Assembly (NCBI GenBank): GCA_964016885.1
Contig: OZ024747.1
Location: 48,298,001-48,362,000 of the forward strand
From: Eledone cirrhosa
Taxonomy: Eukaryota
Reading direction: 5' to 3'
DNA length: 64,000 nt
The translations under genes and the position numbers were made by a program. Shown one piece after another: positions 7,501 through 59,508 of the stretch (the first letter of the stretch is position 1; the number at the start of each line of letters is the position of its first letter). The notes beneath the pieces are model-generated. The model made no database searches. It was not told the origin of the DNA and saw nothing but the letters and a program-made list of their open reading frames with translations.

Positions 7501-8972
7501 TCCCAGCGTGCGTCTAAGGTGCCGTTCCAGTCCCCCGCTAACAGTAAAGGGCGAGACGTATCCAGAAAGGCTTCCGGCCACCAGTCTAAAGGCACCACCT
7601 TCGTTATTATTCACCTCCAGGACCACCAACTTACCGTCTGGGTCCCGGATTTAAAATTTCCCCTCTTTTTGTATTTCTTCACTTCGTACTACGAGGGCCA
7701 TCAGTTCTTTGTTGGACCTCCTGACGAGCACGAAGTTTTGTATGTTTTGTTGGTGTGAATTTATTTGTTTGCGTGGCTGTGGTGGGGATGGTTTTGATGG
7801 TGTTGTTTCGGTTGTGTCTGTGTTTATTGTGTCTGTGGTTTCAGATGTTTGCGTGTGTATTTGTTCTTGCGTCTGTTTAGGTTGTTTGCGTTTAGGAGAT
7901 GGTGATAGTGATGGTGGTGTTGATGTTGGTATTTTGGGGGAGATGTTTGCGTGGGTTGGGTGGTGCCAGCATTTTTTATTGTGGGTGTTTTTGTGCTTTG
8001 TTGAGTTTTTTTTTTCTTTTTTGTGTTCCATTTTTGTATTTTGGGGGATTTGGGTTTTCCCTCATCTTCACTACTGGAAGATGAGGAGTCTGTGTCTGCA
8101 AGTGTGTCTCTGTCTGTGTGTGTGTTTATGTTTTTATTGATGTGTGTATTTTTTTTTTGGGGGGGGGGAGGGGGAATTTGACAACTTTCCTCGTTTCCCC
8201 CCTGGGTGGTCAATGTTGGTGGTGGTCTTTCTATTGATGTTGTTGCTGGTGGTTTTGCTGGTGCTGGTGTTGGTTGTGGTCCTCGTCCCGGCGTCGGCAG
8301 CCGTGGAGCCCTTCGACCCCTTGCATCTTTCAGCAGATGAGGGTAGAAAGCTCGCAAATGGGTTTTTTCCCCACAAACGATACAATGCAGCCTTTTGCCC
8401 TCCCTCAGTCATAATGTGAATTACTGTCCCGTTCTGAAGACGGATGTGGTCCAGGATTGTTTTGACATTCTCCGGTCTGATCTGGAGAAGTATCTCCAGG
8501 TCAACCCCGGATCAGTCATATCTGGCAGTTCTTGTTACTTCTATCGCGACGGTATCCGGACACATCCCAGAAGCCACCACATGTCAACTCCTGGTGGGAT
8601 TCTGGGAATGCGGAGACGGGCCGTTATTTTTCCCATGTGGGAGGGGTACATATATGATTCCAGTTCCTCAGAGGAATAACAACACAACCAGGATCTGGAC
8701 ATATCGATGTATTGACGGAGTAAAACACACTTCAACAACATGTGTACCTGTCTTTCCCACACCAATTTGGACTGCCTGAAGAGGTCACAGCCAATGATGG
8801 CTGTCACCGAAATATATATAGCAGTATATCTATAATTTATAATAAACGAAGCCAAATTTTACATATTTGACTTAATTATTTTACGTTACTCCGGAGTAAA
8901 CAAACCAACCTGAATACTTCGTCGAGTGCTCCAATCTGCATACAGAGGTGTCGGTAAACAACCAACATATAC
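4555..8972 (-). mobile_element. L1/Tx1-clade LINE, near full length, decayed
   Basis: ORF1 remnant with degenerate CCHC knuckle (~8350-8420); ORF2 with APE (~7650-7200), RT (KSPGLDGLPYE, NFRPITLLNTEFKILAK, DQSKSFDRV, VCQGCSLS) and C-terminal CSRC..ETVLHALVQC; several frameshifts. Confidence 0.9.
6011..7099 (-). pseudogene. Tx1-like ORF2 reverse transcriptase fragment
   Basis: 362-aa ORF carrying the N-terminal RT motifs, ending in a frameshift/deletion before the catalytic DD motif. Confidence 0.85.
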
Positions 8973-14325: not shown

Positions 14326-15460
14326 CCTAGAAATTTTTTTTTGATTTTTCTAGGCTGGAAAAATGAAAAATGAAAACAATGAAAAAAATTCTTTTCATTT
14401 TTCTAGGCTGCAAAAATGAAAAATGAAAAAAATGAAAAATTTTTTTTTCATTTTTCTAGGCTGGAAAAATGAAAAAAATGAAAAAATGAAAAAAATTAAA
14501 AAAAATTGAAGAACTGAAAAAATGAAAAAATGAAAAAATGAAAAAATGAAAAAATGAAAAAATGAAAAGATGAAAAAATGAAAAAATGAAAAAATGAAAA
14601 AATGAAAAAATGAAAAAATGAAAAAATGAAAAAATGAAAAAATGAAAAAATGAAAAAATGAAAAAATGAAAAAATGAAAAAATGAAAAAATGAAAAAATG
14701 AAAAAATGAAAAAATGAAAAAATGAAAAAATGAAAAAATGAAAAAATGAAAAAATGAAAAAATGAAAAAATGAAAAAATGAAAAAATGAAAAAATGAAAA
14801 AATGAAAAAATGAAAAAATGAAAAAATGAAAAAATGAAAAAATGAAAAAATGAAAAAATGAAAAAATGAAAAAATGAAAAAATGAAAAAATGAAAAAATG
14901 AAAAAATGAAAAAATGAAAAAATGAAAAAATGAAAAAATGAAAAAATGAAAAAATGAAAAAATGAAAAAATGAAAAAATGAAAAAATGAAAAAATGAAAA
15001 AATGAAAAAATGAAAAAATGAAAAAATGAAAAAATGAAAAAATGAAAAAATGAAAAAATGAAAAAATGAAAAAATGAAAAAATGAAAAAATGAAAAAATG
15101 AAAAAATGAAAAAATGAAAAAATGAAAAAATGAAAAAATGAAAAAATGAAAAAATGAAAAAATGAAAAAATGAAAAAATGAAAAAATGAAAAAATGAAAA
15201 AATGAAAAAATGAAAAAATGAAAAAATGAAAAAAATGAAAAATGAAAAAATGAAAAAAAATGAAAAATTTTTTTTTCCATTTTTCTAGGCTCGAAAAATG
15301 AAAAATGAAAAAAATGAAAAATTTTTTTTTCATTTTTCTAGGTTGGTAAAATGAAAAAAATGAAAAATAAAAAATGAAAAAAAATGAAAAAATTAAAAAA
15401 TGAAAAAATGGAAAAAAATGGAAAAAATGAAAAAAATGGAAAAAAATGGAAAAAAATGAA
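14326..15460. repeat. (TGAAAAAA)n 8-bp satellite with ~60-bp ctagg-containing flanking units
   Basis: Near-perfect 8-mer array at ~14515-15230, flanked on both sides by tttttctaggctggaaaaatg... units. Confidence 0.95.
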
Positions 15461-15461
15461 C

Positions 15462-16035
15462 ATTGTGTTTCATAGGGAGGTAGTAACGAGACGTCATTCT
15501 TTCACAGTTGGCAACAATGTGGCTAACATCTTCGGTCTATGTTTTACAAAGCCTACATTTATTGTCGACTGATGGCCCTCCTCTTTTGTGTAGCAGGTAT
15601 TTCGTAGTGATGTCTTGTTCCTGTATTGCATAGAGATATCCTTCAAGGTGGGATGTTATAACCTTGTCGGAACTCCATGCCAGGCTTTTTAAATGATTTA
15701 TTCCCTCTATTGTCTGTGTTTTTCGTCTCAGGTACCCATGCACAAATTTCTCTGTAAATTGGTCCATTTTTTAAATCTTGTTCGAACATTGAATAGGATC
15801 TTCCAATTTCCCTGCTTCTCTCCTTATTTATGGGTCCATCATGTCTGACATTCTCATCCTGTCCAAGATATCTATGTTGTCACCTGACTGTAGAGGTTGT
15901 ATTGTCAAGCCATTCATTTCTAGATTTCCAGAGGAGGGCAGAGCCCTTCCACGTTTTACTGTTAAATATGCAAATTTCATTCTGATGTCTGCAGAAAATT
16001 GTGTAATGAGGTCCAATTGCTTTTTAATTTCCTCA
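15462..16035 (-). mobile_element. Fragment of the R4/Dong family seen at 28335
   Basis: IKKQLDLITQFS...NGLTIQPLQSGDN and DQFTEKFVHGYLRRKTQTIEGINH...DNKCRLCK, nearly identical to the 1169-aa ORF; internally deleted. Confidence 0.88.
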
Positions 16036-16039
16036 CTTA

Positions 16040-16148
16040 GTAAAGCTTCAAACATGGCTATCGTTTCATATGTGACACCTTCTTTAGTATCAAGCGATGG
16101 TATTACTCGAAATCGAGTTGCAGCCATTTTGTATATATGTATGTATGT
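16040..16148 (+). mobile_element. RTE-derived 3' stem-loop with (ATGT)n tail
   Basis: tactcgaaatcgagttgcagccat followed by gtatatatgtatgtatgt; same terminus as 21540-21570. Confidence 0.7.
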
Positions 16149-19100
16149 TCTGGTTTTATAATTTCACAAATTTTTGCCAATAGAGAGAGAGTCGGTTTCT
16201 AACGTAGACACAAGACTCTCTCATTGGAATTTACACAACATCAACTAGGTAGATATGTATGCATGTCTGCATGCATGTGTAGATATGGATGTTATTGTAT
16301 GTGTGGATATGGATGTTTTGAGTTGTATCTGTACATGTGTATATTCAGTTATTAGATGCAAAATTTTTGGAATGTTTTACATATTTTTACTGTTCCATTA
16401 ATGGATTGCACTTGTAATTTCCTAACTAGTTGTGTTCTTTCTGTTCCTGTGAAGCCTAGCTTCTCAAGATTTGTATTGAGGCAGTTACTAACATATCCCA
16501 GTGCCCCAATAATCACAGGCATAAATCTGAAGGTGTAATCAGGGTGGAGTATCTTCAGATTTCTCATCAGTTCTGCATACATATTCTCCTTTTCGCTAAT
16601 CTTTGATATTATTTTGGCATCTGCTGGACAGCTAATTTCCACTACTGTGCATGCTTTCTTTTCCCTGTCCCATATCATAATATCTGGTCTGTTATGCCTG
16701 CATTTTATTGGGGTTTTTACTGAAACATTCCACCAGTACTCTTTCATATTATGTATATGTATGTCTTCCACATTGCTGTAGCTTTTAATGTAGTTATTAT
16801 CGGGGTTATCTTTTCTACGGATTGCATTGTACAGTGTTTTGTCCACTACATTATGCCTCAGAGGTAGATAGTAGTGTTGACATCTTTGGACATGGGTGAC
16901 ATTTTCAATGTTAATTCTGCAGAGTCTGGATTTGTTATCACATCTAGGTGTTTTTCCTGCATCCCTATCTCTTTTGTGTACCAGTTACTTTGTGTTGATT
17001 TCCTGTTCTTGGATAGCAAAAGCGTATCCTTCAAAGTGGGAGCCAAAATAGCGGTTGTTGGTCCAAGATAAACTACTTTACTTATGTATATGACTCTCAC
17101 TCTGGATCTTCCATGCATGATTTTTTGCTGATAAGCATGCAGTTTTTCATCCATGGATTTACTGCGATACTGCTGAGCATCTTCCCTGGGTGTGTGTTTT
17201 TGATTATCACACAGGGAATACTTCTCGAGGAGTTCCTTCCCAACTTTCATGATAGACTTCCTCGAGAGACGGGCTCCTACGCTTGGAAATTCGTAAATGT
17301 TGTCGGAGGGATATGATGCGACATTCAAATGCTGTCTGGACTGATGTTAGGCCTCTGCCTCCCTGCTTACGTTTCAAGTAAAGGCGGTCTATGTCACTGT
17401 TGATGTGGAAGTTTCCGGTGTTGTTTAGTAATTTTCGAGTTCTAACATCAATTGCTCGGATTTCGTCTATCGTCCAATTGAGTATTCCAAACGTTGGTGT
17501 TAGGACAGGCACAGCAAACACATTGTGAGCCACATTGTTTTGCGCAGAGAGATCCGATGACCATATCTTTCTTAATAGGGTGTAGTATTCCCTGGTTACG
17601 CGTTCCTTATTACAGATATCATTATTGGATATGTCCTGTAGCAGTCCTCATCAGATATTGGTGAAACAGTTAGGCCATTGATACAAATGTTGTTAAATTG
17701 GGTTATTGTTTTTCCCCGCTTTACAGTCATATATGAGCATTTATCTTGGCCAAACTCCATTCCTATATCCTTTCACAATGTTGTAACCAGGTCAAGATTT
17801 TTCTTCATCCCATCCATGTTCTTGGCATAGAGTTTCAGATCATCCACAAAGAATTTATGGGTTAGGTTCGTATTTCTGTCCTGTGACCCAATGATGTATC
17901 CTTCACATTTCTTGAGCAGAAAGGACAAGGGGTTTAATGACAGGAGACAGAGAGACTGTCTCCCTGAAATATACCCCTGCGATATTTTATTTTATCAGTG
18001 AAAATAGAGTCCTCCTTCTCTGTCTTTAACTTTAGGATAGTAGCCCAAGAAGAAGATAGCTTCTCTATGGCTCTGATAATAATGTCTTGGACTTTAGCAA
18101 GTCAGAGGGTCTCTATTATCCAAGAGTGGGGAACAGAATCGAAAGCTTTCCTGTAGTCCAGCCAGACTGTAGCCATATTCCTCTTAAGTTGTCGTACCTC
18201 CGACATCGCAGTTTTGTTGATTAGGAGTTGTTCAGCACACCCCAAACCCCTTTCTTTCCAGCTGCTTGTTCATCTGTGATGATGTTATTATTTTCACATT
18301 GATCTTGGAGAAAAAGGTTCAGGCAGGCTGTATACAACTTATACATCAGGTTCTGGCATACAATGTGTCGGTAGTTTTTTGCCAGGTGGGTGTCTTTGGA
18401 CCAGTAATGTTTGTGCTAATGTCAACCATTCTGGTATAAGTATATCTCCCTTAAGAACTTGTTGGTAAAGGTCGGTAAGATACCTCCGATAGAATATCAG
18501 TTTTTTGTACCAGTAGCCGACAATCATGTCTCTTCCTGGTGTTTTCTTATCTTGGAGTTTTCACAGTCTCAAGGGTACCCTCAATTATTTCGTATGTTTT
18601 TGTTGTAGTGTAGGAGCAATAGTTCTTTTGGATTTCTTTTAGCCACACTGCATCTTGGTTGAAATTCTTCTTTTCATCCCATATTTTTCTCCAAAAGGAA
18701 TCTATGTCTTTCTGGGATGGGTCCTTAGTAACACTTATTATTTTATTTTTCCCTTCATATCTCTATAGACTGATGTTTGGTTTCGTCTGAATCTTTTATT
18801 AAGCACTTTTCTTTCATCTACCTTATTCAGGTATCGGCGTTTTTCGCTTGTTTGAGGGTGATCCGCTTCTGGTTCTACTATTACCAAACATCGTCTCTAT
18901 TTTATTTTTTACTCTTTGTTGGTGAGGAGTGAAGTTTTTTTTGTGTTTGTTTGTATGTAAGCAGCATTGTCACATATCCTATGGATTTTCGTAGGTCAGC
19001 AATCTTTTTTTCTATTTTAGTTATACATGATGGCATTTTTGGTGGTGTTTTGTTCTTGTTAATATCTCTGATATCACCAAGATAATGATTCACTGTCGTA

Positions 19101-20309
19101 GCTAAGGCATATAAACAGGCGTTGATTTGCCAAAATGTTGGGGTTTTTATCCGTCGTAAATCCCCTATTTCGTCAATAACGTAATATTTCATTATTTGTT
19201 TTTTTTATTATTAAATATTGTTGTTTTAAAACGTTCAGCAATAGAAATGTTTATACATGAATTAATTTCTCTCTAGAAGATTTCGTTGAGGAAAATTTCA
19301 ATTGTTTATACTTTTGATTATCATTATCGGAATTGGCAGTATCGGTAGAGGGTCGGACGCCTTGCTTTGACGCATAGAGTTACGGCCCTTGCCATTCTGA
19401 GTTCAAATCCCACCGAGGTTAACTTAGCCTTTCATCCTTACGGGGTCGATAAAATAAGGAAGCAGTAATTTACTGGGATAATTGCTGGCCTTGTGCCAAG
19501 AGTAGAAACAATTATCGATAGTATTTTCCACAATAGTCGAAGTAGACTCGGATGGTACACGTGGTGTCAAATTTCTTCGATTATTATTATTATTTCTTCG
19601 ATTATTATTATTATCGATAGTGTTTTCCCCAGCATTCGAGGTAGACCTAGATGGTACAGGTGGTGTCAAGTTTCTTACAGGCATAGTTGTTTCAAGGCAC
19701 TGTTCGACCTGGCTACAAGGAAGTCTAGTAGCATGGCGACCTGTAGCACGTGTTGTTGATTCCATGTTTGTTGTGGGGGGACTTACAATTAATAATATTT
19801 ATTTTATTTTTTCGTTCAACAAACGTCGCTTGTTGGCGTAATTGTTTCGCTGTGAAGTGATTTAGCTCTGGGTGTATTTCGTCCCAGTATAGCTTCATTC
19901 TGTTCAATGGAGGGATTGTTTTTCGCCATTTTATAACAATTAAATAAATCATCATTAAGTTCGCAAATCCAAGAGAAATACGATTTATAATTTCGGTTTC
20001 TTCTGTAGCTACAACTGAATAAATTTTGTTTACCTTTCTCGTTTTTCTTCGGTACTCCACTAATGTTGTTGTCGTTGATGTTGTGTTCAGCCATGCTGTT
20101 TGTAGCAAATCCTTGTAAAATGAATTATGTATTTAGTCGGATATCTCTACGAATTCGAATAAAAGGTGTCTTCAGTAGATATAGTTAGAAGAATATCCAG
20201 TTATTCAACATGACTGGTAGTTGTGGCATTACTGTCGGAGATAGTATTCATCTTAAATTTAATGAATAGTCTCCCACACCAAAATATGCGACTGATCGCG
20301 TTGACTGAT
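16149..20309 (-). mobile_element. Second R4/Dong-clade LINE, near full length, decayed
   Basis: N-term WDEIHPELNHFTAKQLRQQA; RT (WLDYRKAFDSVPH, FFVDDLKLY); RLE NRPDIMIWD..VVEISCP..KENMY; ends KICKTFQKF; (TACA)n on both sides. Confidence 0.9.
19329..19510 (+). mobile_element. SINE family A inserted into the R4 ORF
   Basis: ggcagtatcggtagag...gagttcaaatcccaccgaggttaac...ggccttgtgccaagagtagaaac; flanked by the repeat attatcg (probable TSD). Confidence 0.88.
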
Positions 20310-20310
20310 G

Positions 20311-20344
<34 letters not shown>

Positions 20345-20406
20345 TGTATGTATGTATGTATGTATGTATGTATGTATGTATGTATGTATGTATGTATGTA
20401 TGTATG
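20310..20406. repeat. (ATGT)n microsatellite
   Basis: Near-perfect tetranucleotide run. Confidence 0.95.
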
Positions 20407-20676
20407 TCGAGTCACCCTTGAGTGCTACTGGCAACATGTAACCCAGTACAATCTGTCGCATGGTCGGGTCGTCGGCGACTAAACCGCCAACGCCACCAAG
20501 TTTACTTGGTGAGGAGGGTGATTTTGGACATCATGCGGGATAAAAAACAAAACCTGACAAAGGGCAGAAGAATTCATGAGTCGACGGTTATCTAAAAATG
20601 TGTAAATATGTATATACATATGTATATATGTGTATATGTATATATGTATATACATGTATGCATGTGTATGTATATG

Positions 20677-21118
20677 CACGGGGAAGTAGAAATAATCGGG
20701 CTGGACACCCGATTGCGCAGTTAAACCACTGGGAGTGAAGGACCCCTAGCCTTTGTCAGGGAATTCTTCTAGGAGAAGGCAACTCAGGAAACTGGGATAA
20801 CTCCGACATAACACCTGCGGCTCAGTAGTTACCGATGATGTTGATCTTTTCTTCTTTTCGCGTTATAGCTACTGTCGCTCAGAGAGTGGGATTGGCTCAG
20901 TGCACAGTCATTCCTCACTTTAAAAAAGAACTTCACGCATAGGCATTGCACAATGGCATTAATTGATAATTATTAATAATGTTATATCGTGCAATGACCA
21001 TACTCGATATCGAGGGAGCAGCCATCATGTATGTATGTATGTATGTATGTATGTATGTATGTATGTATGTATGTATGTATGTATGTATGTATGTATGTAT
21101 GTATGTATGTATGTATGT
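20677..21118 (+). mobile_element. Bipartite non-autonomous RTE derivative (5' UTR fused to 3' stem-loop and (ATGT)n)
   Basis: 20677-20960 matches the reverse complement of 27350-27632; 20990-21030 matches the reverse complement of 23461-23502; the ORF is absent. Confidence 0.9.
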
Positions 21119-21119
21119 A

Positions 21120-21629
21120 GGCAAATGGGCTCTTAAGAGTCAATAGCCATCCAAAATCACCGGGAGAGATGACCCCTTAGCCTTTGTCAAGGCAGAATTC
21201 TAGGAGAAGGAAAACTCTGATATAACACCTGCAACCCTGATGGTATCCAATGATGTTGAATTGTTCTTCTTTTTGGTAAATATCATCTTGGTTAAGAGAG
21301 TGGGACTGGCTTTGTGCAGTGCCTTTGCTCACTATAAAAGCTTCACAGCACAGGCATTGCTTTATATCTGGAGATCTCTCTGCACTTGTCGTCACATGGT
21401 ACCATGGGCCCAGCACTATGTGTCAATAATTGTCACAAGTGTAGTGTTTGTACCAGAGTTTTCAAGTCGCTGGCTGGACTAAAAAGTCACATTCGTTCAG
21501 CGCATTGGTAGGGGTTCTCCTACATGGATATAAAGTAGTGGCCGTACTCGAAAACGAGTTGGCAGCCACCATGTATGTATGTATGTATGTATGTATGTAT
21601 GTATGTATGTATGTATGTATGTATGTATG
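21120..21629 (+). mobile_element. Bipartite RTE-derived SINE-like element, family B
   Basis: RTE 5' UTR motif tagcctttgtcaaggc..ctaggagaaggaaaactctg, terminal C2H2 coding remnant ([23 protein letters not shown]), stem-loop tactcgaaaacgagt and (ATGT)n tail. Confidence 0.88.
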
Positions 21630-21924
21630 TCAGGTCGCTCTCGAGTGCTACTGGCATCATGTAATCCATTACAACCTGTCCCATGGTTGAGTCGTCGGCG
21701 ACTAAACCGGTATTTGTTTGTTCGACATAACTCCAAATGATCACTAACGAGTACGTTACTGAACCCGTTATTTGTTGAAGGTGAACCAGTCATTCTGTTC
21801 CCCAGAGTTAATGTACGACATACACATATATCATTAATGATATTGTTGAAGGGATGTCTTGAAATTAGAGTTAGCTCTATGTATAATATAATATAATATA
21901 ATATAATATAATGGTTTCTCAGCA

Positions 21925-23439: not shown

Positions 23440-23525
23440 ACATACATACATACATACATACATGATGGCTGCCCCCTCGTTATCGAGTATGGCCATTGCA
23501 CAATAAAAAAAAAAAAAAAAAAAAA

Positions 23526-23562
<37 letters not shown>

Positions 23563-26500
23563 GCAATAATAATAATAACGACAACAACAATAATAATATA
23601 CATATTCATATATATATACACACACACGCACGCACACAAGCATATCTACACACACACACACAAACACACGATAGCAACTAACAGTGCTGCGATCGAATGT
23701 GGCTTTTTAGTCCAGCCAATGATCCAAAATGTCTTGCACAGAGTCGGCAACCAAAACATTTACTGGGAATAGTCGGCTGTGGTTGGAGTTCGTGTACTTT
23801 TGCATGTCGCTTGAGTCCTCCTGCTGATTTACATTCTCTACCACATGTTTGGCAAGCATGATGAGTAGCATCTCCAACAGCAGCCTGGTAGTCAACCACT
23901 GGTCTTACTTTATGACTGCGAAGATGACTTTCGAGTCCAGCTTTGCTTAGGCAGAGTCTCGCACAGACGCTGCATGTCAGAAACATAGGAGGACCCTCGC
24001 CGTCTGGAAGTGCAACAGCAATACCCTTCCTCACGTCCCGCTTTACTTTCTCGTGTGCGATTCGAGATGCCTCAAAGGCAACTTTTCCCTCATATACAGT
24101 CTTTCTCCATTTATTACGATCAGCAGCAATATTTTCCCATGTATCAGCAGAGATGTTAGCGTCTTTCAGAGAGGCCTTCAAGGAATCCTTATACCTCCTT
24201 TTTGGTTTATGTGGCGGTCGTTTTCCTTTAACCAACTCTCCATAGAAGAGTTGTTTTGGTATTCTAGAATCCTTCATCCTGGCAAGGTGACCACTCCAAC
24301 GGAGTCGCTGCTTAAGCACAAGAGCTTCTATACTGTCACACATAGAGCTTTCCAAAATCTCGACATCACTGATGTGGTCCCTCCAGTGAACGCCATGTAT
24401 CCGTCTGAGACACATCTGATGGAAACGCTCCAATTGCTTAAGGTGGCGTCGATATGTGACCCAGGTCTCGCAGGCATAAAGAAGACAAGAGAGTACACAT
24501 GCCCTGTACACCTTTACCTTTGTCCTCCTGCATATGTCTCGCCGACCCCAGAGTCGCCTTTCTAGCTTTCCGAAAGCATCACTTGCTTTCCTAATCCTAA
24601 GTGAGATTTCACTGTCAAGGTTGCCGTATCGATTGACAGTGCTTCCCAGGTAGACAAACTGATCAACCACTCCAAGTCGTTTGCCATACACATAGATGTT
24701 TGGTTCAGTGTACTGCCTACCAGGTGCAGGTTGGTACATGACGACGGTTTTCTTGAGACTGACAGTCAAACCCAGGGCAGTGCAAGCGTCAGAAAATACA
24801 TTCAAAATGTGCTGCATATCACTCTCTGTGTGCGCTACAAGATCGCAATCATCTGCATACAAGAGGTCTCTTATGACTGATGTAAATACTTTTGTCTTCG
24901 CAGCAAAGCGCCTGATGTTAAATATGCTGCCTGAGGTTCGATATCGGATGTAAACACCATGCTCGCAATTCCTGAATGCAATACAGAAAACCATTGCAAA
25001 GTATATGGCAAACAGGGTCGGTGCTGGAATATCCCCCTGTTTCACTCCATTTTTTACTGAGATAGGCTCCGACATGTTACCTCCGACATTAACCCAAGCC
25101 TTCATGTCGTCATGGAAAGACCTAACTAAAGCAAGGAACTTATCAGGGCAACCAAGTTTCTGGAGAACCCTCCATAATGCATCTCTGTTGACAGTATCGA
25201 AAGCCTTTGTCAGATCGACAAAAACCTGATACAGATCCAAGCCCTGTTCAATGCACTTCTCCTGGAGCTGTCTAGCTGAGAAGATCATATCAGTAGTGCC
25301 GCGTCCAACACGAAAACCAGATTGACTTTCAGGAAGGACACAATCTGCAATGTGTGTCAGCAGACGGTCCAGAAGCACCCTACATAAAACTTTCCCCACG
25401 ACAGAAAGCAATGATATACCTCTGTAGTTCCCACAATCATTCCTGTTACCCTTTCCCTTGTACAAGACCACCATTACTGCATCTCTCCAGTCCTCAGGCA
25501 CGGATTCATTAGCCCATATCCCTCCAAAAAGAGAGTGAAGATGTTGCAGGAGTCTCTCACCACCATATTGTAGGAGCTCAGCATGTATGCCATCCATACC
25601 TGGAGATCTTCCACTGTTCAGCTTCGAAATAGCCACTGCAACCTCCACAAGTGTCGGAGGCTCTGCGAGAGCTACTTTCACAAGACTTTCCGGAATGAGA
25701 TTGAGGAAATCTTCACTGACGACAGACGGCTGATTCAAAAGATCATCAAAGTGCTCCCGCCACCTTCGTAGAATTCCCTGTGAGTCACGAAGAAGTTCTT
25801 TGCCATCCCTGCTGCGAATCGGTGTCACCAGAGAAGAAGACGGTCCATAAACCTCACGCAAGAGACTGTACAACAGCTTTGTGTTATTGCAATCAGACGC
25901 AGTTTGTATCTCACCAGCCTTCTCACTCCACCACTGATCCTTCATCTGAGAAAGACTCCGCCTAACACGTGATTTTACATCCCTGAGCTCCTCATGCAAC
26001 GTATTCCTCTCCTGTGGTCTTGCCGTCAAGTAGCGTGACAGAGCGCGCCTCTTATCAGCCAACAAGTCATCTATATGCACATCTTTCTCATCAAACCAGT
26101 CCTGATGTTTTCTCTGCACCAATCCCAGAACACGTCTGCCTACATCATAAACCGACTTTTTAAGGGTCGGCCAATCCTCACCAAGATCTGCAGCCTGCAT
26201 CTCTTCTTCCAATGTCCTCTTCACATTTTTATCCTTAAGACGAGCAGCATTCAATCTTTTGGGCAGGGTAACACCAGGAGCCCGGATTTTACGTTTGGTG
26301 ATTAGATTCACTTTTGCGCGTACCAGGCGGTGGTCCGTCCAGCACTCAGCTCCACGAAGAACACGAACACACCGCACATCCTGTCTGTCACGCATCCTGA
26401 CTAGGACGTAGTCCAAAAGATGCCATTCCTTAGATGCAGGATGCATCCATGTGGTCTTGAATTTGTTCTTTTGTTGGAACATGGTGTTGGTAACACACAG

Positions 26501-27231
26501 ATCCAGCTCCTCACACATCTGCAGCAAGAGCATACCATTGCTGTTACACTTTCCCACCCCATGCCTTCCGATTACATTCCATGTGTTAAAATCCCTACCC
26601 ACTCTAGCATTAAAGTCACCAAGCACGATGACTTTGTCTGCCTGAGGGATATTTCTTAAAACACCTTTCAAGGCATGGTAAAAGGACAGTTTTTCTTCAT
26701 CGACAGAATTCATAGTTGGAGCATACACACTCACCAGGGTAGCATATCTTCCCTTGTCCAGCGGAACTCTCATGGACATAAGACGCTCACTAATCCCCAC
26801 TGGGAATTCTTCCAATTTATTCACCAGTACAGTCTTAACAGCAAATCCTACCCCAGCCTCTCTTCTGGTTCCTTCATCTCTTCCTTTCCAGAAGAATGTA
26901 TATTCTCCACAAAATTCCGTAAGATGACCATCCCCAGCTAACCTCGTCTCAGACAAAGCCACGATGTCAAGATCGTAACGTCGAAGCTCCTTCGCAACAA
27001 GAGCGGTCCTTCGTTCAGGACGCTCCAAAGAATCCCTGTCAAGCAGCGTCCGTACGTTCCAGCAGCCAAGACTAAATGCCCTGTTTGGCTCTATTACAAT
27101 GGCACGATGACGGGCGGGCCCAGGTTGTGATAACTTGGGGCCCCTGCCCTTATTGCCAATGATCTTTTTTGTTCCAGAACCCAAATTGGCAATTATCTCG
27201 TTTACATTGTTCTGGAACATCATTGAATTGG

Positions 27232-27267
<36 letters not shown>

Positions 27268-27295
27268 AGAAAAAAAAAAAAAAAAAGTAATAATA

Positions 27296-27330
<35 letters not shown>

Positions 27331-27631
27331 ACACTATTAATAATTATTAATGCACTCGTGCAATGCCTGTGCGTGACGAATATTTTTAAAGTGAGGAAAG
27401 ACTGTGCACTGAACCAATCCCACTCTCTGAGCGACAGTAGCTATAACCCGAAAAGAAGAAAAGATCAACATCATCGGTAACTACTGAGCCGCAGGTTTTA
27501 TATCGGAGTTAACCCAGTTTCCTGAGATGCCTTCTCCTAGAAGAATACCCTGACATGGGCTAGGGGTTCTTCACTCCCAGTGGTTTAACTGCGCGATCGG
27601 GCATCCAGCCCGATTATTTCTATGTCCCCGC

Positions 27632-27632
<1 letters not shown>
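23440..27632 (-). mobile_element. Full-length RTE LINE
   Basis: Structured 5' UTR (27632-27230), intact ORF, 3' UTR ending in stem-loop ggccatactcgataacgagggggcagcc and (ATGT)n tail. Confidence 0.93.
23678..27223 (-). CDS. RTE ORF: APE endonuclease, reverse transcriptase and three C2H2 zinc fingers (1181 aa)
   Basis: WNVRT, LSETR, GDFNARVG, LDYVL, TDH (APE); DLTKAFDTV, GVKQG, LLYADD (RT); CSVC..H..H, CQTC..H..H, CRLC..H...H; uninterrupted. Confidence 0.95.
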   Translation of the reverse strand: MMFQNNVNEIIANLGSGTKKIIGNKGRGPKLSQPGPARHRAIVIEPNRAFSLGCWNVRTLLDRDSLERPERRTALVAKELRRYDLDIVALSETRLAGDGHLTEFCGEYTFFWKGRDEGTRREAGVGFAVKTVLVNKLEEFPVGISERLMSMRVPLDKGRYATLVSVYAPTMNSVDEEKLSFYHALKGVLRNIPQADKVIVLGDFNARVGRDFNTWNVIGRHGVGKCNSNGMLLLQMCEELDLCVTNTMFQQKNKFKTTWMHPASKEWHLLDYVLVRMRDRQDVRCVRVLRGAECWTDHRLVRAKVNLITKRKIRAPGVTLPKRLNAARLKDKNVKRTLEEEMQAADLGEDWPTLKKSVYDVGRRVLGLVQRKHQDWFDEKDVHIDDLLADKRRALSRYLTARPQERNTLHEELRDVKSRVRRSLSQMKDQWWSEKAGEIQTASDCNNTKLLYSLLREVYGPSSSLVTPIRSRDGKELLRDSQGILRRWREHFDDLLNQPSVVSEDFLNLIPESLVKVALAEPPTLVEVAVAISKLNSGRSPGMDGIHAELLQYGGERLLQHLHSLFGGIWANESVPEDWRDAVMVVLYKGKGNRNDCGNYRGISLLSVVGKVLCRVLLDRLLTHIADCVLPESQSGFRVGRGTTDMIFSARQLQEKCIEQGLDLYQVFVDLTKAFDTVNRDALWRVLQKLGCPDKFLALVRSFHDDMKAWVNVGGNMSEPISVKNGVKQGDIPAPTLFAIYFAMVFCIAFRNCEHGVYIRYRTSGSIFNIRRFAAKTKVFTSVIRDLLYADDCDLVAHTESDMQHILNVFSDACTALGLTVSLKKTVVMYQPAPGRQYTEPNIYVYGKRLGVVDQFVYLGSTVNRYGNLDSEISLRIRKASDAFGKLERRLWGRRDICRRTKVKVYRACVLSCLLYACETWVTYRRHLKQLERFHQMCLRRIHGVHWRDHISDVEILESSMCDSIEALVLKQRLRWSGHLARMKDSRIPKQLFYGELVKGKRPPHKPKRRYKDSLKASLKDANISADTWENIAADRNKWRKTVYEGKVAFEASRIAHEKVKRDVRKGIAVALPDGEGPPMFLTCSVCARLCLSKAGLESHLRSHKVRPVVDYQAAVGDATHHACQTCGRECKSAGGLKRHAKVHELQPQPTIPSKCFGCRLCARHFGSLAGLKSHIRSQHC

Positions 27633-27694
<62 letters not shown>

Positions 27695-27700
27695 CATACA

Positions 27701-30700
27701 TTATGGTGACCGTTGTGGTCAGTGTCCGATAATCGGACGTGTGTAATTACGGCTTACATGAAGGCAACATACCATATATTGGAAAAAGTTGAGCTACATT
27801 ACGCGGTAAGATTACATACAATAATTCTACATAAGTGTTTGAACTGTAAGTGTGTTGTAAAACACCTATTTATATGAACGATACATACACTTATGATATA
27901 TGAACGATACATATACTTTAACATATAAATGCAACGTTGTTATATTACATTTATAAAAAAATATAAAAGTAACGTTTTCGATTCAGAAACAAAAATATAA
28001 GTGTTTGAACTGTGAATGTTGTGAATATGTTGTAGAACACCTATTTATATGAATGATACATAAACTTTAACATATAAATACAGCGTTGTTATATTATATT
28101 ACATTCGTAAAGGAATATACTAAGTAACGGTTCTTTTTGTTCTCGATTCAAACGATTCAAGAACAACGTTTAAAACACAGTTGTAGAATTAAAAACTAAC
28201 TGAAAAGAAATATTACCCAAGCTGTGAATAACTTTAAATTTGATTCTGACAGAACTTTGTCGTAACTTTTAAAGAAGATCATCGACTATTTAAAAAAAAT
28301 AAATACAAAATATTAGTGAATAGACGAACTCATCATGGCAAAAAGTACAAGTCTCCTTCGACCAAATCGCAATTACAACCGTTGTATACAGTGGAGCTAC
28401 GAGCTTAACAAAGAATTATATGAAGCATACAAACAATCTGAACCCCAAAAGTTCGGTTTTATGCAAAGGCTAAAAACTTTATGGAACTCCAAACACCCAG
28501 AATTAGACTTTTCTCCAAAGCATCTAAATGAACAGGCAAAACGTATCATTAGATGTAAATTGATACATCTAACGGAATCGAGTGATACTACAAATACAGC
28601 CCTTGTAGACAACCACCCCACCTCCACTGACAGACAAAGAGAATGGCCAGCTAAATCTAACAGTGAACAGCTCACCAACAATTTTGCTGAAATCCATCCC
28701 ACTTCCACTGAAGAACAGCGAGAAAGGTCAGCTGACTCTAGTAGTAATTGTCACCACATCAACAACGAGGCTGCAATTCATGACTCTACTGAACAAACAG
28801 AGCACCAAAAACTTGTGGGCACCCTACAAGTGATATGGAACGATATGTTTCAAGAGATACACAGCCTTAATGTGAGTGACAGACCATACAACACTAGAGT
28901 CAGTAAAGAACCCACTAAATTGGAATTGGAAGCGGTGAACGAAATAGCTGGCAATTATCTGAAGGCTATACGATCTAAAGGTGTAGAAACGACATTTGAA
29001 ACGCTCAATGTTTTGTTATATGTTTCAGCTGTCACATTGCTATCATATAACACACATCTAAAACCATGCAATCAAGATACAAACAGAAAGCCTGAACCAG
29101 CGTGGATGCGAAATTTAAAAACCAAAATTTTGTCCCTGAGACGAAGTATCTCACACATCGCAGTCGTTATGAAATGCAACATAGAGAGAAACTTCACACG
29201 ACACCAGGAAGACCTAAAGAAAAAGTTAGAGAGACGATTTGGAGATACCAAATTTAAAACTTTGAACTCCAAATTACACCAGTTGAAACAACAACTCACA
29301 GCTACAACAGAAAGACTAAAATATAAGTCAACAGCCCATAAACGACAAGTGCTAAATAGATTGTTTGCCAGAGATCCTAAATCAGTTTATCGCAGCTTCG
29401 GTGGCAAAAGCTCAATCCCTGTAAACGACACCACTTCAAAAGAACAGGTTGAGAACTACTGGAGATCTGTATGGGAAACGGATGACGGATTCAACAGACA
29501 AGCTAATTGGCTAAAACAACTGGAACAGGACTACTGCCAACATGTCCAGACAAAACAATATGACATAGATGGGTCAATACTGGAAACAGCTCTACAGAAA
29601 ATGCCGAATAGGAAATCGCCAGGCCCAGACCTCATTACAGGATACTGGTTGAAGAATTTCACTTTCTATCGGCAAGATCTCATACGGCTGTTTACAGAAA
29701 CCATTAAGGGCACACAAGAACTGCCCAGATGGTTATCAACTGCCACTACTCTCCTCATTCCCCAAAATAGCCAAACCACCCTTGCTAAAAATTACCGCCC
29801 AATTGCCTGCCAAAACATCATGTATAAATTATATACTGGGTGCCTTAACCTGTTCTTACAGGATCACTGTGCTACCAACAACATCATAACACCTGAGCAG
29901 GCTGGTGGAAAGAGGGAGGTGTGGGGTTGCATAGATCACCTACTAACTAACAAAATGATTCAGGAAAAAACAACAAAGAATCGCAGAAACATGACTGTCG
30001 TGTGGCTGGACTATCAAAAAGCATTTGATAGTGTACCTCATGGGTGGATTATTAAGGCTTTACAGTTAGCTAAAGTCCCACAACCATTAGTAGCTGCTGT
30101 TGAACGCCTGACCAAGAACTGGTACACCAATTTGATCCTTAGAGGTGAGAAGGAGCAGGTTAAGACTGATAGGATACATTACCAGAAGGGCATCTTTCAG
30201 GGTGATAGCTTGTCAGTACTACTCTTCGTTCTCTCACTGAATCCACTATCTTACCTACTCAGGAAACAAGGTGGACAAAGAAGTGGGCCCAGAAGTATCT
30301 CCCATCTTTTCTTTGTTGATGACCTGAAGTTGTATGGGCCAAATATCAATGACATCAAGAAACAATTGGACCTCATTACACAATTTTCAACCGACATCAA
30401 AATGAAATTTGGTGAGTCCAAGTGTGCATATTTGGCAGTAAAACGTGGAAGAGCTGTGCCCTCCTCTAGAAATCTAGATATGAACGGCCTGACAATACAA
30501 CCTCTGCAGTCAGGTGACAACTACAGATATCTTGGACAGGATGAGAATGTCAGATATGATGGACCCATAAATAAGGAGAGAACCAGAACTGAATACCTCA
30601 GAAGAGTAAAAAAAATATGGTCATCAGAACTGTCAGTATACAACAAATACATTGCCCACAATACCTATGCTGTGCCAATTCTAACGCCAACATTTGGCCT

Positions 30701-31925
30701 ACTGAACTGGTCATTGCAAGAACTAAGTGAGATGGATGTTAGAACTCGAAAACTTCTCAGTGTTACTGGGAACTTTAACATCAATGGTGATGTGGATAGG
30801 CTATACTTCTCACGCAAGGAAGGTGGCCGGGGTCTAAAATCAATATTAACAACATATGAGACCCGGATAGTAACACTGAAGCAACACCTTCAACAGAGGA
30901 AAAAGGTTGGCGACCATCTTGCTCAGGTTTATGAGCATGAAAAAAGAAATATCATTAGAATAGCGACTGATCTGGAGGAGAGATATGGAATAAAGCCTGA
31001 TATAAATCTCTCACCCAGAGAAATCGGAAGATCCTATTCAATGTTCAAACAAGAAAAAAAAATTGACCAATTTACAGAGAAAGTTGTGCATGGATACTTG
31101 AGGCGTAAAACACAGACCATAGAGGGGATAAACCACTCAAAAAGCCTGGCATGTAGTTCCGACAAGTTTATGACATCACACCTTGAGGGATATCTCTATG
31201 CAATACAGGAACAAGAACTCCCTACCAAATATCTGCTGCACAAAAGAGGAGGGCCAGCAGCTGACAATAAATGTAGGCTATGTAAAACAAAGATCGAGGA
31301 TGTAAGCCACATTGTTGCCAGCTGCGAAAGAATGTCATCTCGCTACTACCTCCCCATGAGACACGATGGGATAGCTAGAACTATCTGGAACGCACTTCGG
31401 AAAACAAAATTAACAACAAACGAGGAAGAATATATTGAGACAGATGGCACTAAGGAATACTGGTGGAACCTGAAAATAAAAACTGCCACCAAATTAAAGC
31501 ACAACCGGCCTGATATTGTAGTTTGGGACCACACATTGAAAACGTGTTCTGTTGTGGAGATCAGCTGCCCACTTGATGCAAACGTTGTCAGAAAAATACA
31601 GGAGAAGGAGGACATCTACGGACCATTGATGAGGAGCTTACAAATCCAGTATCCAAGATACACCTTTAGCTTCATACCCATCATTATTGGTGCTACGGGT
31701 TATATACCAACCCGCTTGGACCAAAGTATGACCGAACTTGGATTTGCGGACAAAAAGCGCAGCTCCCTAATTCATAGTCTACAAATGGCTGCGATAGCTG
31801 GCACCTTCAAAATATGCAAAACATTCTTGCGATTCAAGGGATGACAATTTCTTTTCTTTTACAACCTTGCCACCAGGAAGGTGGCCGGTCAAAAAAATAT
31901 ACTCGAAATTAAGAGAAAGAGAAAA
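27701..31925 (+). mobile_element. Full-length R4/Dong-clade non-LTR retrotransposon
   Basis: ~630-bp 5' UTR, intact ORF, short 3' UTR with hairpin gccacc-aggaa-ggtggc; (TACA)n on the left and acatacat on the right. Confidence 0.9.
28335..31844 (+). CDS. R4/Dong ORF: RT, CCHC knuckle and restriction-like endonuclease (1169 aa)
   Basis: WLDYQKAFDSVPH, GIFQGDSLS, LFFVDDLKLY, CRLC..EDVSHIVASC, RHD, RPDIVVWD..VEISCP..K..Y; no APE domain. Confidence 0.95.
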   Translation: MAKSTSLLRPNRNYNRCIQWSYELNKELYEAYKQSEPQKFGFMQRLKTLWNSKHPELDFSPKHLNEQAKRIIRCKLIHLTESSDTTNTALVDNHPTSTDRQREWPAKSNSEQLTNNFAEIHPTSTEEQRERSADSSSNCHHINNEAAIHDSTEQTEHQKLVGTLQVIWNDMFQEIHSLNVSDRPYNTRVSKEPTKLELEAVNEIAGNYLKAIRSKGVETTFETLNVLLYVSAVTLLSYNTHLKPCNQDTNRKPEPAWMRNLKTKILSLRRSISHIAVVMKCNIERNFTRHQEDLKKKLERRFGDTKFKTLNSKLHQLKQQLTATTERLKYKSTAHKRQVLNRLFARDPKSVYRSFGGKSSIPVNDTTSKEQVENYWRSVWETDDGFNRQANWLKQLEQDYCQHVQTKQYDIDGSILETALQKMPNRKSPGPDLITGYWLKNFTFYRQDLIRLFTETIKGTQELPRWLSTATTLLIPQNSQTTLAKNYRPIACQNIMYKLYTGCLNLFLQDHCATNNIITPEQAGGKREVWGCIDHLLTNKMIQEKTTKNRRNMTVVWLDYQKAFDSVPHGWIIKALQLAKVPQPLVAAVERLTKNWYTNLILRGEKEQVKTDRIHYQKGIFQGDSLSVLLFVLSLNPLSYLLRKQGGQRSGPRSISHLFFVDDLKLYGPNINDIKKQLDLITQFSTDIKMKFGESKCAYLAVKRGRAVPSSRNLDMNGLTIQPLQSGDNYRYLGQDENVRYDGPINKERTRTEYLRRVKKIWSSELSVYNKYIAHNTYAVPILTPTFGLLNWSLQELSEMDVRTRKLLSVTGNFNINGDVDRLYFSRKEGGRGLKSILTTYETRIVTLKQHLQQRKKVGDHLAQVYEHEKRNIIRIATDLEERYGIKPDINLSPREIGRSYSMFKQEKKIDQFTEKVVHGYLRRKTQTIEGINHSKSLACSSDKFMTSHLEGYLYAIQEQELPTKYLLHKRGGPAADNKCRLCKTKIEDVSHIVASCERMSSRYYLPMRHDGIARTIWNALRKTKLTTNEEEYIETDGTKEYWWNLKIKTATKLKHNRPDIVVWDHTLKTCSVVEISCPLDANVVRKIQEKEDIYGPLMRSLQIQYPRYTFSFIPIIIGATGYIPTRLDQSMTELGFADKKRSSLIHSLQMAAIAGTFKICKTFLRFKG

Positions 31926-32336
31926 CATACATGGTGGCTGCCAACTCGTTTTCGAGTACGGCCACTACTTTATATCCATGTAGGAGAACGCCTACCGATG
32001 CGCTGACGAGTGTGACTTTTTAGTCCAGCCAGCGACTTGAAAACTCTGGTACAAACACTACACTTGTGACAATTATTGACACATAGTGCTGGGCCCATGG
32101 TACCATGTGACGACAAGTGCAGCGAGATCTCCAGATATAAAGCAATGCCTGTGCCATGAAGCTTTTATAGTGAGCAAAGGCACTGCACAAAGCCAGTCCC
32201 ACTCTCTTAACCAAGATGATATTTACCAAAAAGAAGAACAAGTCAACATCATTGGATACCATCAGGGTTGCAGGTGTTATATCAGAGTTTTCCTTCTCCT
32301 AGAATTCTGCCTTGACAAAGGCTAAGGGGTCATCTC
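31926..32336 (-). mobile_element. Bipartite RTE-derived element, family B, second copy
   Basis: Near-identical reverse complement of 21167-21575; its tail is interrupted by the R4 element. Confidence 0.9.
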
Positions 32337-32409
32337 ATACATACATACATACATACATACATACATACATACATACATACAAACATACATACATACATAC
32401 ATACATACA

Positions 32410-32440
<31 letters not shown>

Positions 32441-32447
32441 TATACAT

Positions 32448-32547
<100 letters not shown>

Positions 32548-46279: not shown

Positions 46280-46545
46280 TTACACACAATCGCTGCAACT
46301 CAATTTAGAATGATGCCATCACTTGATACTTAAGCATGAGCATCACAGACGTGGCTTTTTAGTCCAGCTAAGGACTTGCCTGTGGCCAGCAATACCATGC
46401 ATCGCAAAAAATGTCACATATCAAGCGAAGCCTGTCTGTGCTTGAAGCTTTTTTAAGCGAGGAAAGGCTTTACACAGGGCCAATCCTACTCTCTGCACAT
46501 CGAATGCATTTGCCCCAAAAGAAGAACTGGTCTACATCATTGGAT
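46280..46545 (-). mobile_element. Diverged bipartite RTE derivative
   Basis: gtggctttttagtccagc (AGLKSH), gccaatcctactctct, terminal gctgcaactc; paralog at 59200-59445. Confidence 0.7.
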
Positions 46546-52391: not shown

Positions 52392-52999
52392 GGGGGGAAG
52401 GTGCTGTGTACATATGTATGAGTGAGTGTAGAGATACTGGTGTGTGTGTGCGTGTTTGGGGTGTGAGTGCGTGTGTGTGTGGTAAGGGGGAAGGGGTGGT
52501 GGTTGGTGTTAATTGTATCAGTGGTGGGGGTGGTCTAATATAGATGTGTCGGGGTGGGAGTTAGTGTAGCTAGAAGGTGAGGGACTGTTACTGTTAATGT
52601 TGGGAGTGTTTTTAGTGGTGTTAGTATGGAGGGGAGAGAGACGGGTAGGATGGGGGAGGGGGAATCGGCCGAAGGCTAAAGGAAGAGGGTGGGGAGTTCA
52701 AACCGGGTTGTGTAAGTCTGTAATAGAAAGATGGTGCGTTGTTCAGCCCCAAGTCGGGCATCGGGGGGTTCCAGGGCACCCAATCAGGCCGCAGAGGGTT
52801 AAGTTCCGAGCGGAGTGTCCGGCGGAGCAGAAGTGTCGACGATGGGGGGAGGACACCCGCCGAGAGGAATGTCGCGGAGCTGCTCGGTGAACCTATCGGC
52901 CAGACGGCGTCCGGTCTGTTCGACATAGGAGGCACCGCACTCCGAGTCCGTAGACAAGGATGGAGTAGGTGCAGCGAAAGGCATGCCGGACAGAGAGAG

Positions 53000-53060
<61 letters not shown>

Positions 53061-54480
53061 CGGAGAGAGAGAAAGAGAGAGAGAGAGAGAGTGGCCATTG
53101 GATCCGTGCAAGGTGGTGGTGTTGGTGATGTGGGGGCATGTGTGGCAACGAGGTCTGGAGCAGGGGAGGGATCCGGGGGTGGGGGAGGAGGTTGGGGGTA
53201 GGGAGCTGCGGACGAGGAGGTTGCGTGCGTGCTTGAAGGAGGAGAGGGATGCGAGTGGAAAGATGGGGAGAGGGAGGGGGTCGGAAGCAGAGAAAGATGG
53301 TTCGTTGGCGGGGATAGGGTGGTGGGGTGGTAGGTGAGGAGGTAGGGGAGATGGTAGGGGTTGGGGGTGGTGGTGAGGGCGGCGTGGACGAGGGAGGGGG
53401 TGTAAACCCCTCCGAGTGAAATGACGGACCAGAGAAAGAGCCTGGATCTCGAAGTCGGCATCTCGGCTGCAAAGGCGGCGGATCCGTAGGAGTTGGGAGT
53501 AAGGAATGGAGTGTTTGGTGTGTGTTGGGTGGGAGGAGGTGAAGTCGAGGTAGGAGTGGGAGTCTGTGGGTTTAAAGACAGCGGAGGTGATGAGTGAGCG
53601 GTGGGAGGGGTCGATGGCGATAGAGATGTCCAAGAAGTGGACGTGGGTGGTGAAGATAGAGGTGGTGAAGTGGAGTGGGAGGGTGGAAGGAACAGAAGAA
53701 AGAGAGAAAGGAGTCGAGCTGTTCTCGAGCACCGATACAGTCGTCAATATGAAGACCGAACAGTTCGGGGGTAGGAACAGTGTATTGGGCAAAGATTTGG
53801 GCCTCAACATGGCCAACGAAAAGGTTGTCATAGTTGGGGCCGATTCTTGTGCCAATGGCTAACCCAGTGAACTGTTGGTAAAATTCAACCGAGAAGGAGA
53901 AGCAGTTAAGGGTGAGGACCTGCTCGGCGAGGCGGAGGAGGGTGGGTTTGGAGGGGACGGGGGAGGGATGAAGGTCGAGATAATGCCGGAGGGCGCGTAG
54001 GCCGTCGGCATGGGGGATGACCGTATACAAAGATTTTATGTCTAAGGTGAAGAGGAGGGTGGGTGGGCCGGGTGGGAAGGTGAGTGAGTCAAAAAGGCGG
54101 AGGACGTGGGTGGGTCGGAGATGTGGGAGGGGAGGGTGGTGACGAGGAAGGCGGAGATGAGTTCGGTAGGGCAGTTGCAGGCCGAGACGATGGGGCGGGT
54201 GGGGGTGTCGTGTTTGTGGATATTGGGGGGAAGTAGACGGTGGGTGTTCGGGGGTGCGGACTATTAAGTGGGAGACGGTAGGAGGTAGAAGGGAGAAGGA
54301 GACGAGGTGTTGGATGGTGGAGGAAACTTGTTGCTTGCTGTTAGTGGGGTGTAGGGTCGGAGGGTAGGGGGCGGTAGAAGAGCGGGGTACGAAGCTGCCT
54401 GAGGGCCTCAGCCATGTAGAGGTCAGTGCGCCACACCACCACGGCGCCTCCCTTGACCGCCGGATTGATGACGATGTCAT
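51092..54480 (-). mobile_element. Neptune-like Penelope element, decayed: RT, CCCC linker, GIY-YIG and long pLTR
   Basis: LFTLDIKSLYTVIPH, GLAIGTRIGP, HIDDCIG, FLDISI, FKPTDSHSYL..SSHP, IPYSQLLRIRRLCS, PCSRPRCHTC, YVEQTGRRLADRF; (CT)n insertion at 52992-53090; HHR-like core at 51130-51157. Confidence 0.88.
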
Positions 54481-54481
54481 C

Positions 54482-58852
<4,371 letters not shown>

Positions 58853-59199: not shown

Positions 59200-59445
59200 C
59201 TGATTCGATTTAGAGTAATATTATCACTTAATACTTAAGCATGAGCATCAAGGATGTGGCTTTTTAGTCCTGCAAGGGACTTGCCTATAGCCAGCAATGC
59301 TATGCCCCCCCCCCCATGTACAAAGCTATGCCTGTGCTTGTAGCTTTTTTAAATGAGGAAAGGCTTTACACAGAGCCAATCCCACTCTCTGAACACCGAA
59401 TGCATTTTCCCCAAAACTAGAACTGATCTACATTATTGGATGCAA
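59200..59445 (-). mobile_element. Diverged bipartite RTE derivative
   Basis: Colinear with 46300-46545. Confidence 0.7.
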
Positions 59446-59508
59446 AGGAAGCAGCAGGTTTTAAAATATATTAGATGTACGATATTATATATATGTGTGT
59501 ATATATAT

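Follow-up and report, generated by a model that had tools for sequence, protein, structure and literature searches.

A 64,000-nucleotide stretch of the genome of the octopod Eledone cirrhosa (GenBank assembly GCA_964016885.1, contig OZ024747.1, positions 48,298,001 to 48,362,000 of the forward strand; hereafter the window) carries a long interspersed nuclear element (LINE) of R4/Dong type, here called family 1, that splits an (ACAT)n microsatellite in two. The features that define it are the following:

27666–27701, plus strand: upstream part of the interrupted target array, (ACAT)9, read from the sequence.
27703–31924, plus strand: family 1, a full-length ACAT-targeting R4/Dong-type LINE, its ends being set by comparison with 80 sampled 3′ ends and with four further copies of full length.
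28335–31844, plus strand: single open reading frame (ORF) of 1169 aa, with an N-terminal three-helix region (likely Myb/SANT-like), a reverse transcriptase (RT), a CCHC knuckle and a PD..E-type restriction-like endonuclease (RLE).
31925–31932, plus strand: downstream part of the target array, (ACAT)2, read from the sequence.

The four other full-length copies agree with the window copy on the start position and are 99.3–99.6% identical to it. Several copies keep an intact 1174-codon frame at more than 99.3% identity, and the family is therefore young as judged by sequence. Downstream, (ACAT)2 is followed from 31933 by the antisense end of an RTE-derived element. This layout, with (ACAT)n at both junctions of an intact RLE element and an antisense RTE-derived stem-loop end beyond the 3′ one, was what an earlier note on this DNA had described, and it is upheld by sequence, fold and homology. 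As a separate observation, the 80-nt 3′ untranslated region (UTR) of family 1 (31845–31924) folds better than shuffled sequences (z −2.94, 3/200) into a GC-rich hairpin, a candidate recognition signal.

The identity of the target was established from junctions counted over the whole 3.0-Gb genome. At least 3699 exact 27-nt family 1 3′ ends are present, and with both GAGAAA and GAGATA endings allowed, 3106 of them (84%) have CATAYA within the next 6 nt. The same motif is found at 1.9% of random positions and at 6.6% of positions inside purine–pyrimidine repeats, as measured in 60 evenly spaced 10-kb pieces (600 kb of the genome) in which (AT)n arrays number 413 and ACAT arrays 25. The window's own junction form occurs at 1444 of the 3699 ends, while a second subfamily ends in GAGATA. 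The 40 best matches to the family 1 3′ end are identical over 146 nt, and all except one run on into CATA repeats (39/40); the 146-nt query ended on the first A, so the count of exact ends was made without that base. Reading of 80 sampled 3′ flanks by eye found no (TAA)n array among them. Identical junction pairs lying about 1 Mb apart on C1 (L176/L177 and G000:C1:34391607/35416923) suggest segmental or assembly duplication, such that the genome counts include some non-independent copies.

The 5′ junctions are equally informative. Fifty truncated copies, being those with a readable 5′ flank among the 80 sampled, break off at arbitrary points, and 46 of them have at least three ACAT units in the 40 nt upstream, with none reversed, against a background of 1.4%. 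Of ten longer copies, including four that are complete at the 5′ side, nine have the array directly at the 5′ junction and the tenth has it a few bases off. Because arrays flank these 5′ junctions wherever the copy happens to break, (ACAT)n is confirmed as the target of family 1 and is not its own tail. The junction register is fixed, the element ending in GAGAAA or GAGATA and ACATAC following. The pure array is longer upstream than downstream (median 60 versus 20 bp, n = 21, p = 0.003), and downstream arrays are sometimes of only one or two units, or as degenerate as the upstream flank; degenerate flanks agree on both sides of the element in L003, L005 and L006. Pure arrays mostly hide any target site duplication, although duplication-like matches of 20–28 bp with variant units can be seen in L005, L006 and L172; copies with short downstream arrays showed no duplication of that length.

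The protein encoded by family 1 has the makings of an R4/Dong-type enzyme. A Pfam search returned RVT_1 (E 3e-24) and, under the Pfam cut-off, zf-RVT (E 9e-5), with no match to an apurinic/apyrimidinic endonuclease (APE), and the motifs CRLC..H..C and RPD..E are present in the sequence. The AlphaFold model is confident (predicted local distance difference test, pLDDT, 87), and the best matches in the PDB are R2 proteins (Foldseek E 1.7e-34; phmmer E 8e-28). Residues 22–74 form three confident helices in the full model, and the N-terminus is homologous to that of a (TAA)n-flanked family of the same genome (E 1.6e-7) and to a Tribolium protein (E 6.7e-7). Atlas neighbours of this region include Myb clusters at 0.76–0.86 (lead level only); no Myb match was among the 25 Pfam families listed for the protein or among the 50 structural matches listed for the domain folded alone, a low-confidence fold (pLDDT 65) whose best Z score, 7.0, belongs to unrelated helical bundles and which was uninformative. 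The three-helix domain is likely Myb/SANT-like.

The closest named homolog is a protein of Argonauta hians (65% identity). In a quick, midpoint-rooted RT tree of 51 rows (about one-third of 120 homologs, with the TAA2 family and RTE dropped for short RT coverage), family 1, family 2 (see below) and the Argonauta protein lie in a separate, long-stemmed clade (Shimodaira–Hasegawa approximate likelihood-ratio support 100) apart from the (TAA)n-flanked family and insect proteins; the references were unnamed proteins, insect proteins and the (TAA)n-flanked family, with no named Dong, R4, Rex6 or Hero sequences among the rows. The nearest relatives of the family 1 RT are these same references (38% identity in the RT to the (TAA)n-flanked family), all far closer than R2. 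Architecture and kinship to the (TAA)n-flanked family thus argue for R4/Dong membership: a single ORF with RT, C-terminal CCHC and RLE and no APE, inserting sequence-specifically into a microsatellite. A strict Dong would have a (TAA)n target, whereas 84% of family 1 ends are followed by CATAYA, and the APE that marks Waldo and the R1 clade is lacking in family 1.

Family 1 is accompanied in the window by a second lineage with the same preference:

16150–20308, minus strand: family 2, another Dong family that targets ACAT, present here as a decayed copy with a short high-copy repeat inside it and recognized by tblastn in four pieces (28–46% to family 1).
20316–20407, minus strand: (ACAT)23, the upstream target array of family 2, which is (ATGT)23 on the forward strand.

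On its 3′ side, ACAT units are followed by a related stem-loop end near 16100–16128; the second, divergent copy that the earlier note had recognized by its like layout is therefore real, if decayed. A first look at the genome gave 1150 family 2 candidates, and inspection by eye of 30 family 2 3′ ends, one being the window copy, found ACAT next in 29. Polarity, register and this second family together bear out an R4/Dong-type RLE lineage that targets (ACAT)n in a strand-specific way, and the predictions that went with it, that junctions are enriched for ACAT genome-wide and that ACAT is not the element's own tail, have held as well. Several smaller observations belong here. The repeat inside the family 2 copy (about 185 bp, at about 19330–19515) is of very high copy number, occurring in roughly half of 60 random 10-kb samples and often beside (TAA)n, and is probably a short interspersed nuclear element. 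A 230-bp fragment at 15800–16038 (minus strand), 85% identical to the family 1 RT region, lies just past the copy. A third Dong-like family, at L112:760–1300 (minus strand), matches family 1 at 76% identity close to its 3′ end and then runs into 17 ACAT units.

Other Dong families of this genome behave conventionally. A search with an insect homolog led to loci that, in all 30 inspected by eye, continue on the 3′ side into (TAA)n-type or A/T-rich sequence and in no case into an ACAT array. The main (TAA)n-flanked family has a 1141-codon frame with an N-terminal motif like that of family 1, and the two proteins align over residues 20–1165 at 30% identity (E 2e-146). On sequence, a conventional (TAA)n Dong thus lives in the same genome, in another clade than family 1. 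The loci L201–L230 and L246–L250 (e.g., G000:C3:208141800–208146800) include many of its intact 1141-codon frames and at least two further TAA-flanked families (L210/L221 and L249). In contigs of other organisms, ACAT repeats were found behind the 3′ end in three (X4, X7, X8) and before the 5′ end in two (X5, X7), while X1 and X10 had no loose end at the 5′ start of the element and X9 stopped short of the 3′ end; a metagenome scan for relatives with flanks gave 155 pattern matches and no confirmed locus.

The earlier note had gone further and proposed that the (ACAT)n sites are tails made by RTE elements, whose copies in the window are the following:

31933–32338, minus strand: RTE-derived 606-bp non-autonomous element (type A), a 5′-truncated copy with its 3′ stem-loop, 98% identical to 21166–21577.
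32336–32540, plus strand: array of (ACAT)n/(AT)n that adjoins the RTE-derived element at its 5′ head and hence is not a tail.
23464–27633, minus strand: RTE LINE (type B) with an intact APE, RT and C2H2 frame, its 3′ end followed by (ATGT)6.
20408–21630, plus strand: head-to-tail chain of an RTE-derived type B and then a truncated type A element, joined by (ATGT)23 and (ATGT)15, arrays that hold no Dong insertion.

It is the head of the type B RTE that lies upstream of family 1, with an A30 run between them; this RTE has a frame of about 1180 aa with several C2H2 zinc fingers at its end, and long A/T runs in both UTRs. By sequence, type A is RTE-derived as well: the C2H2 finger encoded in its 3′ part is 59% identical (E 2e-7) to the C-terminus of the intact RTE at 23678–27328, and its 5′ part is 68% identical to the 5′ UTR of that element, although a search for its exact autonomous parent found none. 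The stem-loop at its end is matched by 3 of 200 shuffles (z −2.83), and a pattern search found 21478 exact type A ends in the genome. Older RTE-related short elements (type C end) at 46281–46545 and 59205–59463 (minus strand) are headed by (AC)n or (AT)n, not ATGT.

Thirty type A copies (L131–L160), all from the first 10 Mb of C1, were used to examine the flanks. Their 3′ flanks begin with ATAT in 15, ATGT in 14 and another sequence in one, and 20 of the 30 have a purine–pyrimidine repeat on the 5′ side too. Flank composition is correlated between the two sides (rho 0.48, p 0.007), duplications are longer than in shuffled pairs (6.9 versus 4.4, p 0.014; L134 shows one of 12 bp, L147 one of 10 bp), and ATGT is more frequent on the 5′ than on the 3′ side (4.4 versus 3.2 per 40 nt, p 0.03). 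Two-sided repeats, a variable 3′ flank, correlated flanks and short duplications fit insertion of type A into pre-existing repeats, and copies such as those at 21119–21570 and 31933–32338 of the window appear to have entered (AT)n/(ATGT)n in the orientation that makes ATGT the sense strand. With no obligate ATGT tail and repeats on both sides, type A does not support the proposal that RTE makes the target sites.

It is nevertheless conceivable that RTE elements make most (ATGT)n arrays as 3′ tails and that the Dong lineage lives on this supply. Both window Dong copies end beside RTE-type stem-loops, type B ends begin with ATGT, on one strand about 3376 type A ends and 927 type B ends have five pure units no more than 30 bp away, and the seeding of microsatellites by RTEs is described for Lepidoptera in the available text of PMC2887409. 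An RTE-type end is also found beyond the array at 21 of 70 sampled Dong ends, so that the adjacency noted earlier is real, but the excess expected with it is not, as background clusters show the same in 4 of 16 (Fisher p 0.77) or 10 of 57 cases (p 0.15). Genome-wide, 146 family 1 ends, at most 3.9% of the 3699, lie within 30 bp of a type A end, whereas 18064 forward-strand five-unit ACAT positions do so out of about 352,000, or about 5.1%, a denominator estimated from 291,268 six-unit positions with the sample ratio 231/191 as scaling factor; type B has a null of 1.3%, and an exact match was seen by eye at 2 of 80 sampled ends. Because proximity to type A does not exceed that of array positions in general, a preference of family 1 for RTE tails is not supported. 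RTE-type neighbours across the array (18/70 downstream, 18/45 upstream) are antisense in 36 of 36 cases, and the upstream ones show heads, not tails, such that arrays at RTE heads are used too; other Dong copies across the array (18 downstream, 7 upstream) are sense in 25 of 25, and the downstream side of 34 of the 70 ends has no recognizable RTE or Dong neighbour. Since type A, the commonest RTE type, is also often followed by pure (AT)n and carries more ATGT on its 5′ side, life on a supply of RTE tails is improbable. Some of the arrays may owe their origin to RTE activity, and RTE family B, of which 8 ends were seen, may attach genuine ATGT tails, but dependence on RTE is possible solely as a claim about array origin.

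Far less probable is loose or random insertion into AT-rich repeats, with copies in ACAT persisting through selection or passive accumulation, as the accessible part of PMC3812793 proposes for Drosophila Waldo-A/B near CA repeats. The youngest copies, namely the 40 with a 146-nt end identical to that of the window, already show the pattern almost without exception, neither register nor polarity varies, (AT)n arrays, though far commoner, mostly stand unused, and a sister Dong family of the same genome occupies (TAA)n. Least probable of all is that (ACAT)n is the Dong's own tail, produced by slippage in reverse transcription: ACATA does follow every standard 3′ end in fixed register, but the arrays at the 5′ junctions of truncated copies largely refute such an origin, the longer array is the upstream one, and downstream arrays can be very short or share the degeneracy of the upstream flank.

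The favoured explanation, which we consider quite probable, is that family 1 sits in (ACAT)n in one orientation and a fixed register, likely by specific nicking and target-primed reverse transcription, with its RTE neighbours as likely independent users. R2, according to the part of PMC13586686 that was available, protects 10–40 bp upstream of its insertion site; by analogy, the family 1 protein would grip several upstream units, likely through the N-terminal Myb/SANT-like domain and RT. The ATGT strand would then be nicked by the RLE between two units, which would leave a free 3′ end as primer for cDNA synthesis, with frequent 5′ truncation and only about one unit needed downstream. RTE-derived elements, for their part, would integrate at the AT steps found in (AT)n/(ATGT)n, with ATGT on their sense strand; because they enter the same arrays in this way, both groups would pile up and often abut, and because each insertion leaves arrays on both sides, Dong-behind-Dong chains would form. 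The neighbouring RTE elements are thus likely fellow tenants of the repeats and not makers that family 1 needs.

Several points weigh against this explanation, which draws on sequence and analogy. Of the family 1 ends, 593 of 3699 (16%) have no CATAYA within 6 nt, although among 40 sampled non-standard ends the five that failed the motif have flanks resembling variants of ACAT. The RNA itself could encode a few bases of the junction (ACATA), and no empty allele of a single locus was seen, both flanks being repeats in which none could be anchored. The per-site null uses an estimated denominator and includes arrays already beside Dong copies, 8 of 16 long background ACAT clusters touch an RTE-type element (by eye), and RTE activity could be a major source of arrays. 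All eight type B ends seen reach ATGT at once, as expected of a true tail, and the signal of duplication at type A, drawn from 30 copies in the first 10 Mb of C1 only, is a modest one (p 0.014).

Comparison with known systems places family 1 as a well-supported new target variant of the known R4/Dong clade, as far as the literature searched and the sequences indicate. The available portions of two sources give TAA as the target of Dong and ACAY as that of Waldo (PMC3812793), and (TAA)n as the Dong target in most insects, molluscs and cnidarians, with a Myb/SANT-like N-terminus (PMC7998251); the word "most" leaves room for exceptions. As described there, Dong elements (Bombyx Dong, DongAg, DongBg and Darwinula Dong) resemble family 1 in their single ORF with RT and RLE, in their microsatellite target and probably in their N-terminal Myb/SANT-like region without zinc fingers, but differ in target, (TAA)n versus (ACAT)n, and family 1 falls in a separate RT clade. 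Waldo (WaldoAg1/2 and WaldoFs1, R1 clade) shares the ACAY-type microsatellite (PMC3812793, in part), but its nuclease is an APE, while family 1 has a C-terminal RLE and no Pfam APE match; the same kind of target has been reached independently. R2 (structures 9nl3, 9dou and 8gh6) provides the best structural and sequence matches in the PDB and the model for the mechanism, yet its protein is only 14–20% identical, and it targets 28S ribosomal DNA and has N-terminal zinc fingers (PMC7998251, in part). Hero elements are described, in the accessible text of PMC3636483, as lacking specific targets, unlike family 1.

Among cephalopods, Dong-R4 accounts for the most recently active LINE insertions of Octopus vulgaris, with 5 families and 1129 insertions (PMC13282606, available text), and Octopus bimaculoides carries a Dong and an RTE, both with full ORFs (PMC9115989, available text). 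A term search of those texts found neither the word "target" in the former nor "target site" in the latter, and these families are set beside family 1 by description only. Lepidopteran RTEs also have 3′ ends joined to simple repeats (PMC2887409, available text), but the main RTE-derived element here is bordered by repeats at either end, and its 3′ flank varies. Literature searches, with Repbase and Fell 2025 lying outside them, found no published report of an ACAT/ATGT-targeting Dong.

Elsewhere in the window, decayed L1/Tx1-like and Penelope-like (GIY-YIG) fragments are recognizable by eye from translations at 5028–8408, 52621–54486 and 55471–58511, and a (AAAAATGA)98 array lies at 14465–15258.

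The ACAT-targeting families add a new target, resting on thousands of junctions, to the short list of RLE retrotransposon specificities, and the convergence of an RLE element and the APE-type Waldo on ACAY-type repeats is a further consequence. RLE proteins are under development as insertion tools. With intact frames of both a (TAA)n and an (ACAT)n Dong present in one genome, target change in RLE elements is open to direct study. There is also a caution, relevant to cephalopod repeat annotation, that repeats behind RTE ends need not be tails. A broader and rather doubtful reading is that a hitherto unreported, still mobile Dong sub-lineage switched from (TAA)n to (ACAT)n and shares this repeat with an opposite-strand RTE in polarized nests, with RTE supplying or extending much of the target pool. 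If true, this would be a microsatellite niche kept up by one retrotransposon and exploited by another.

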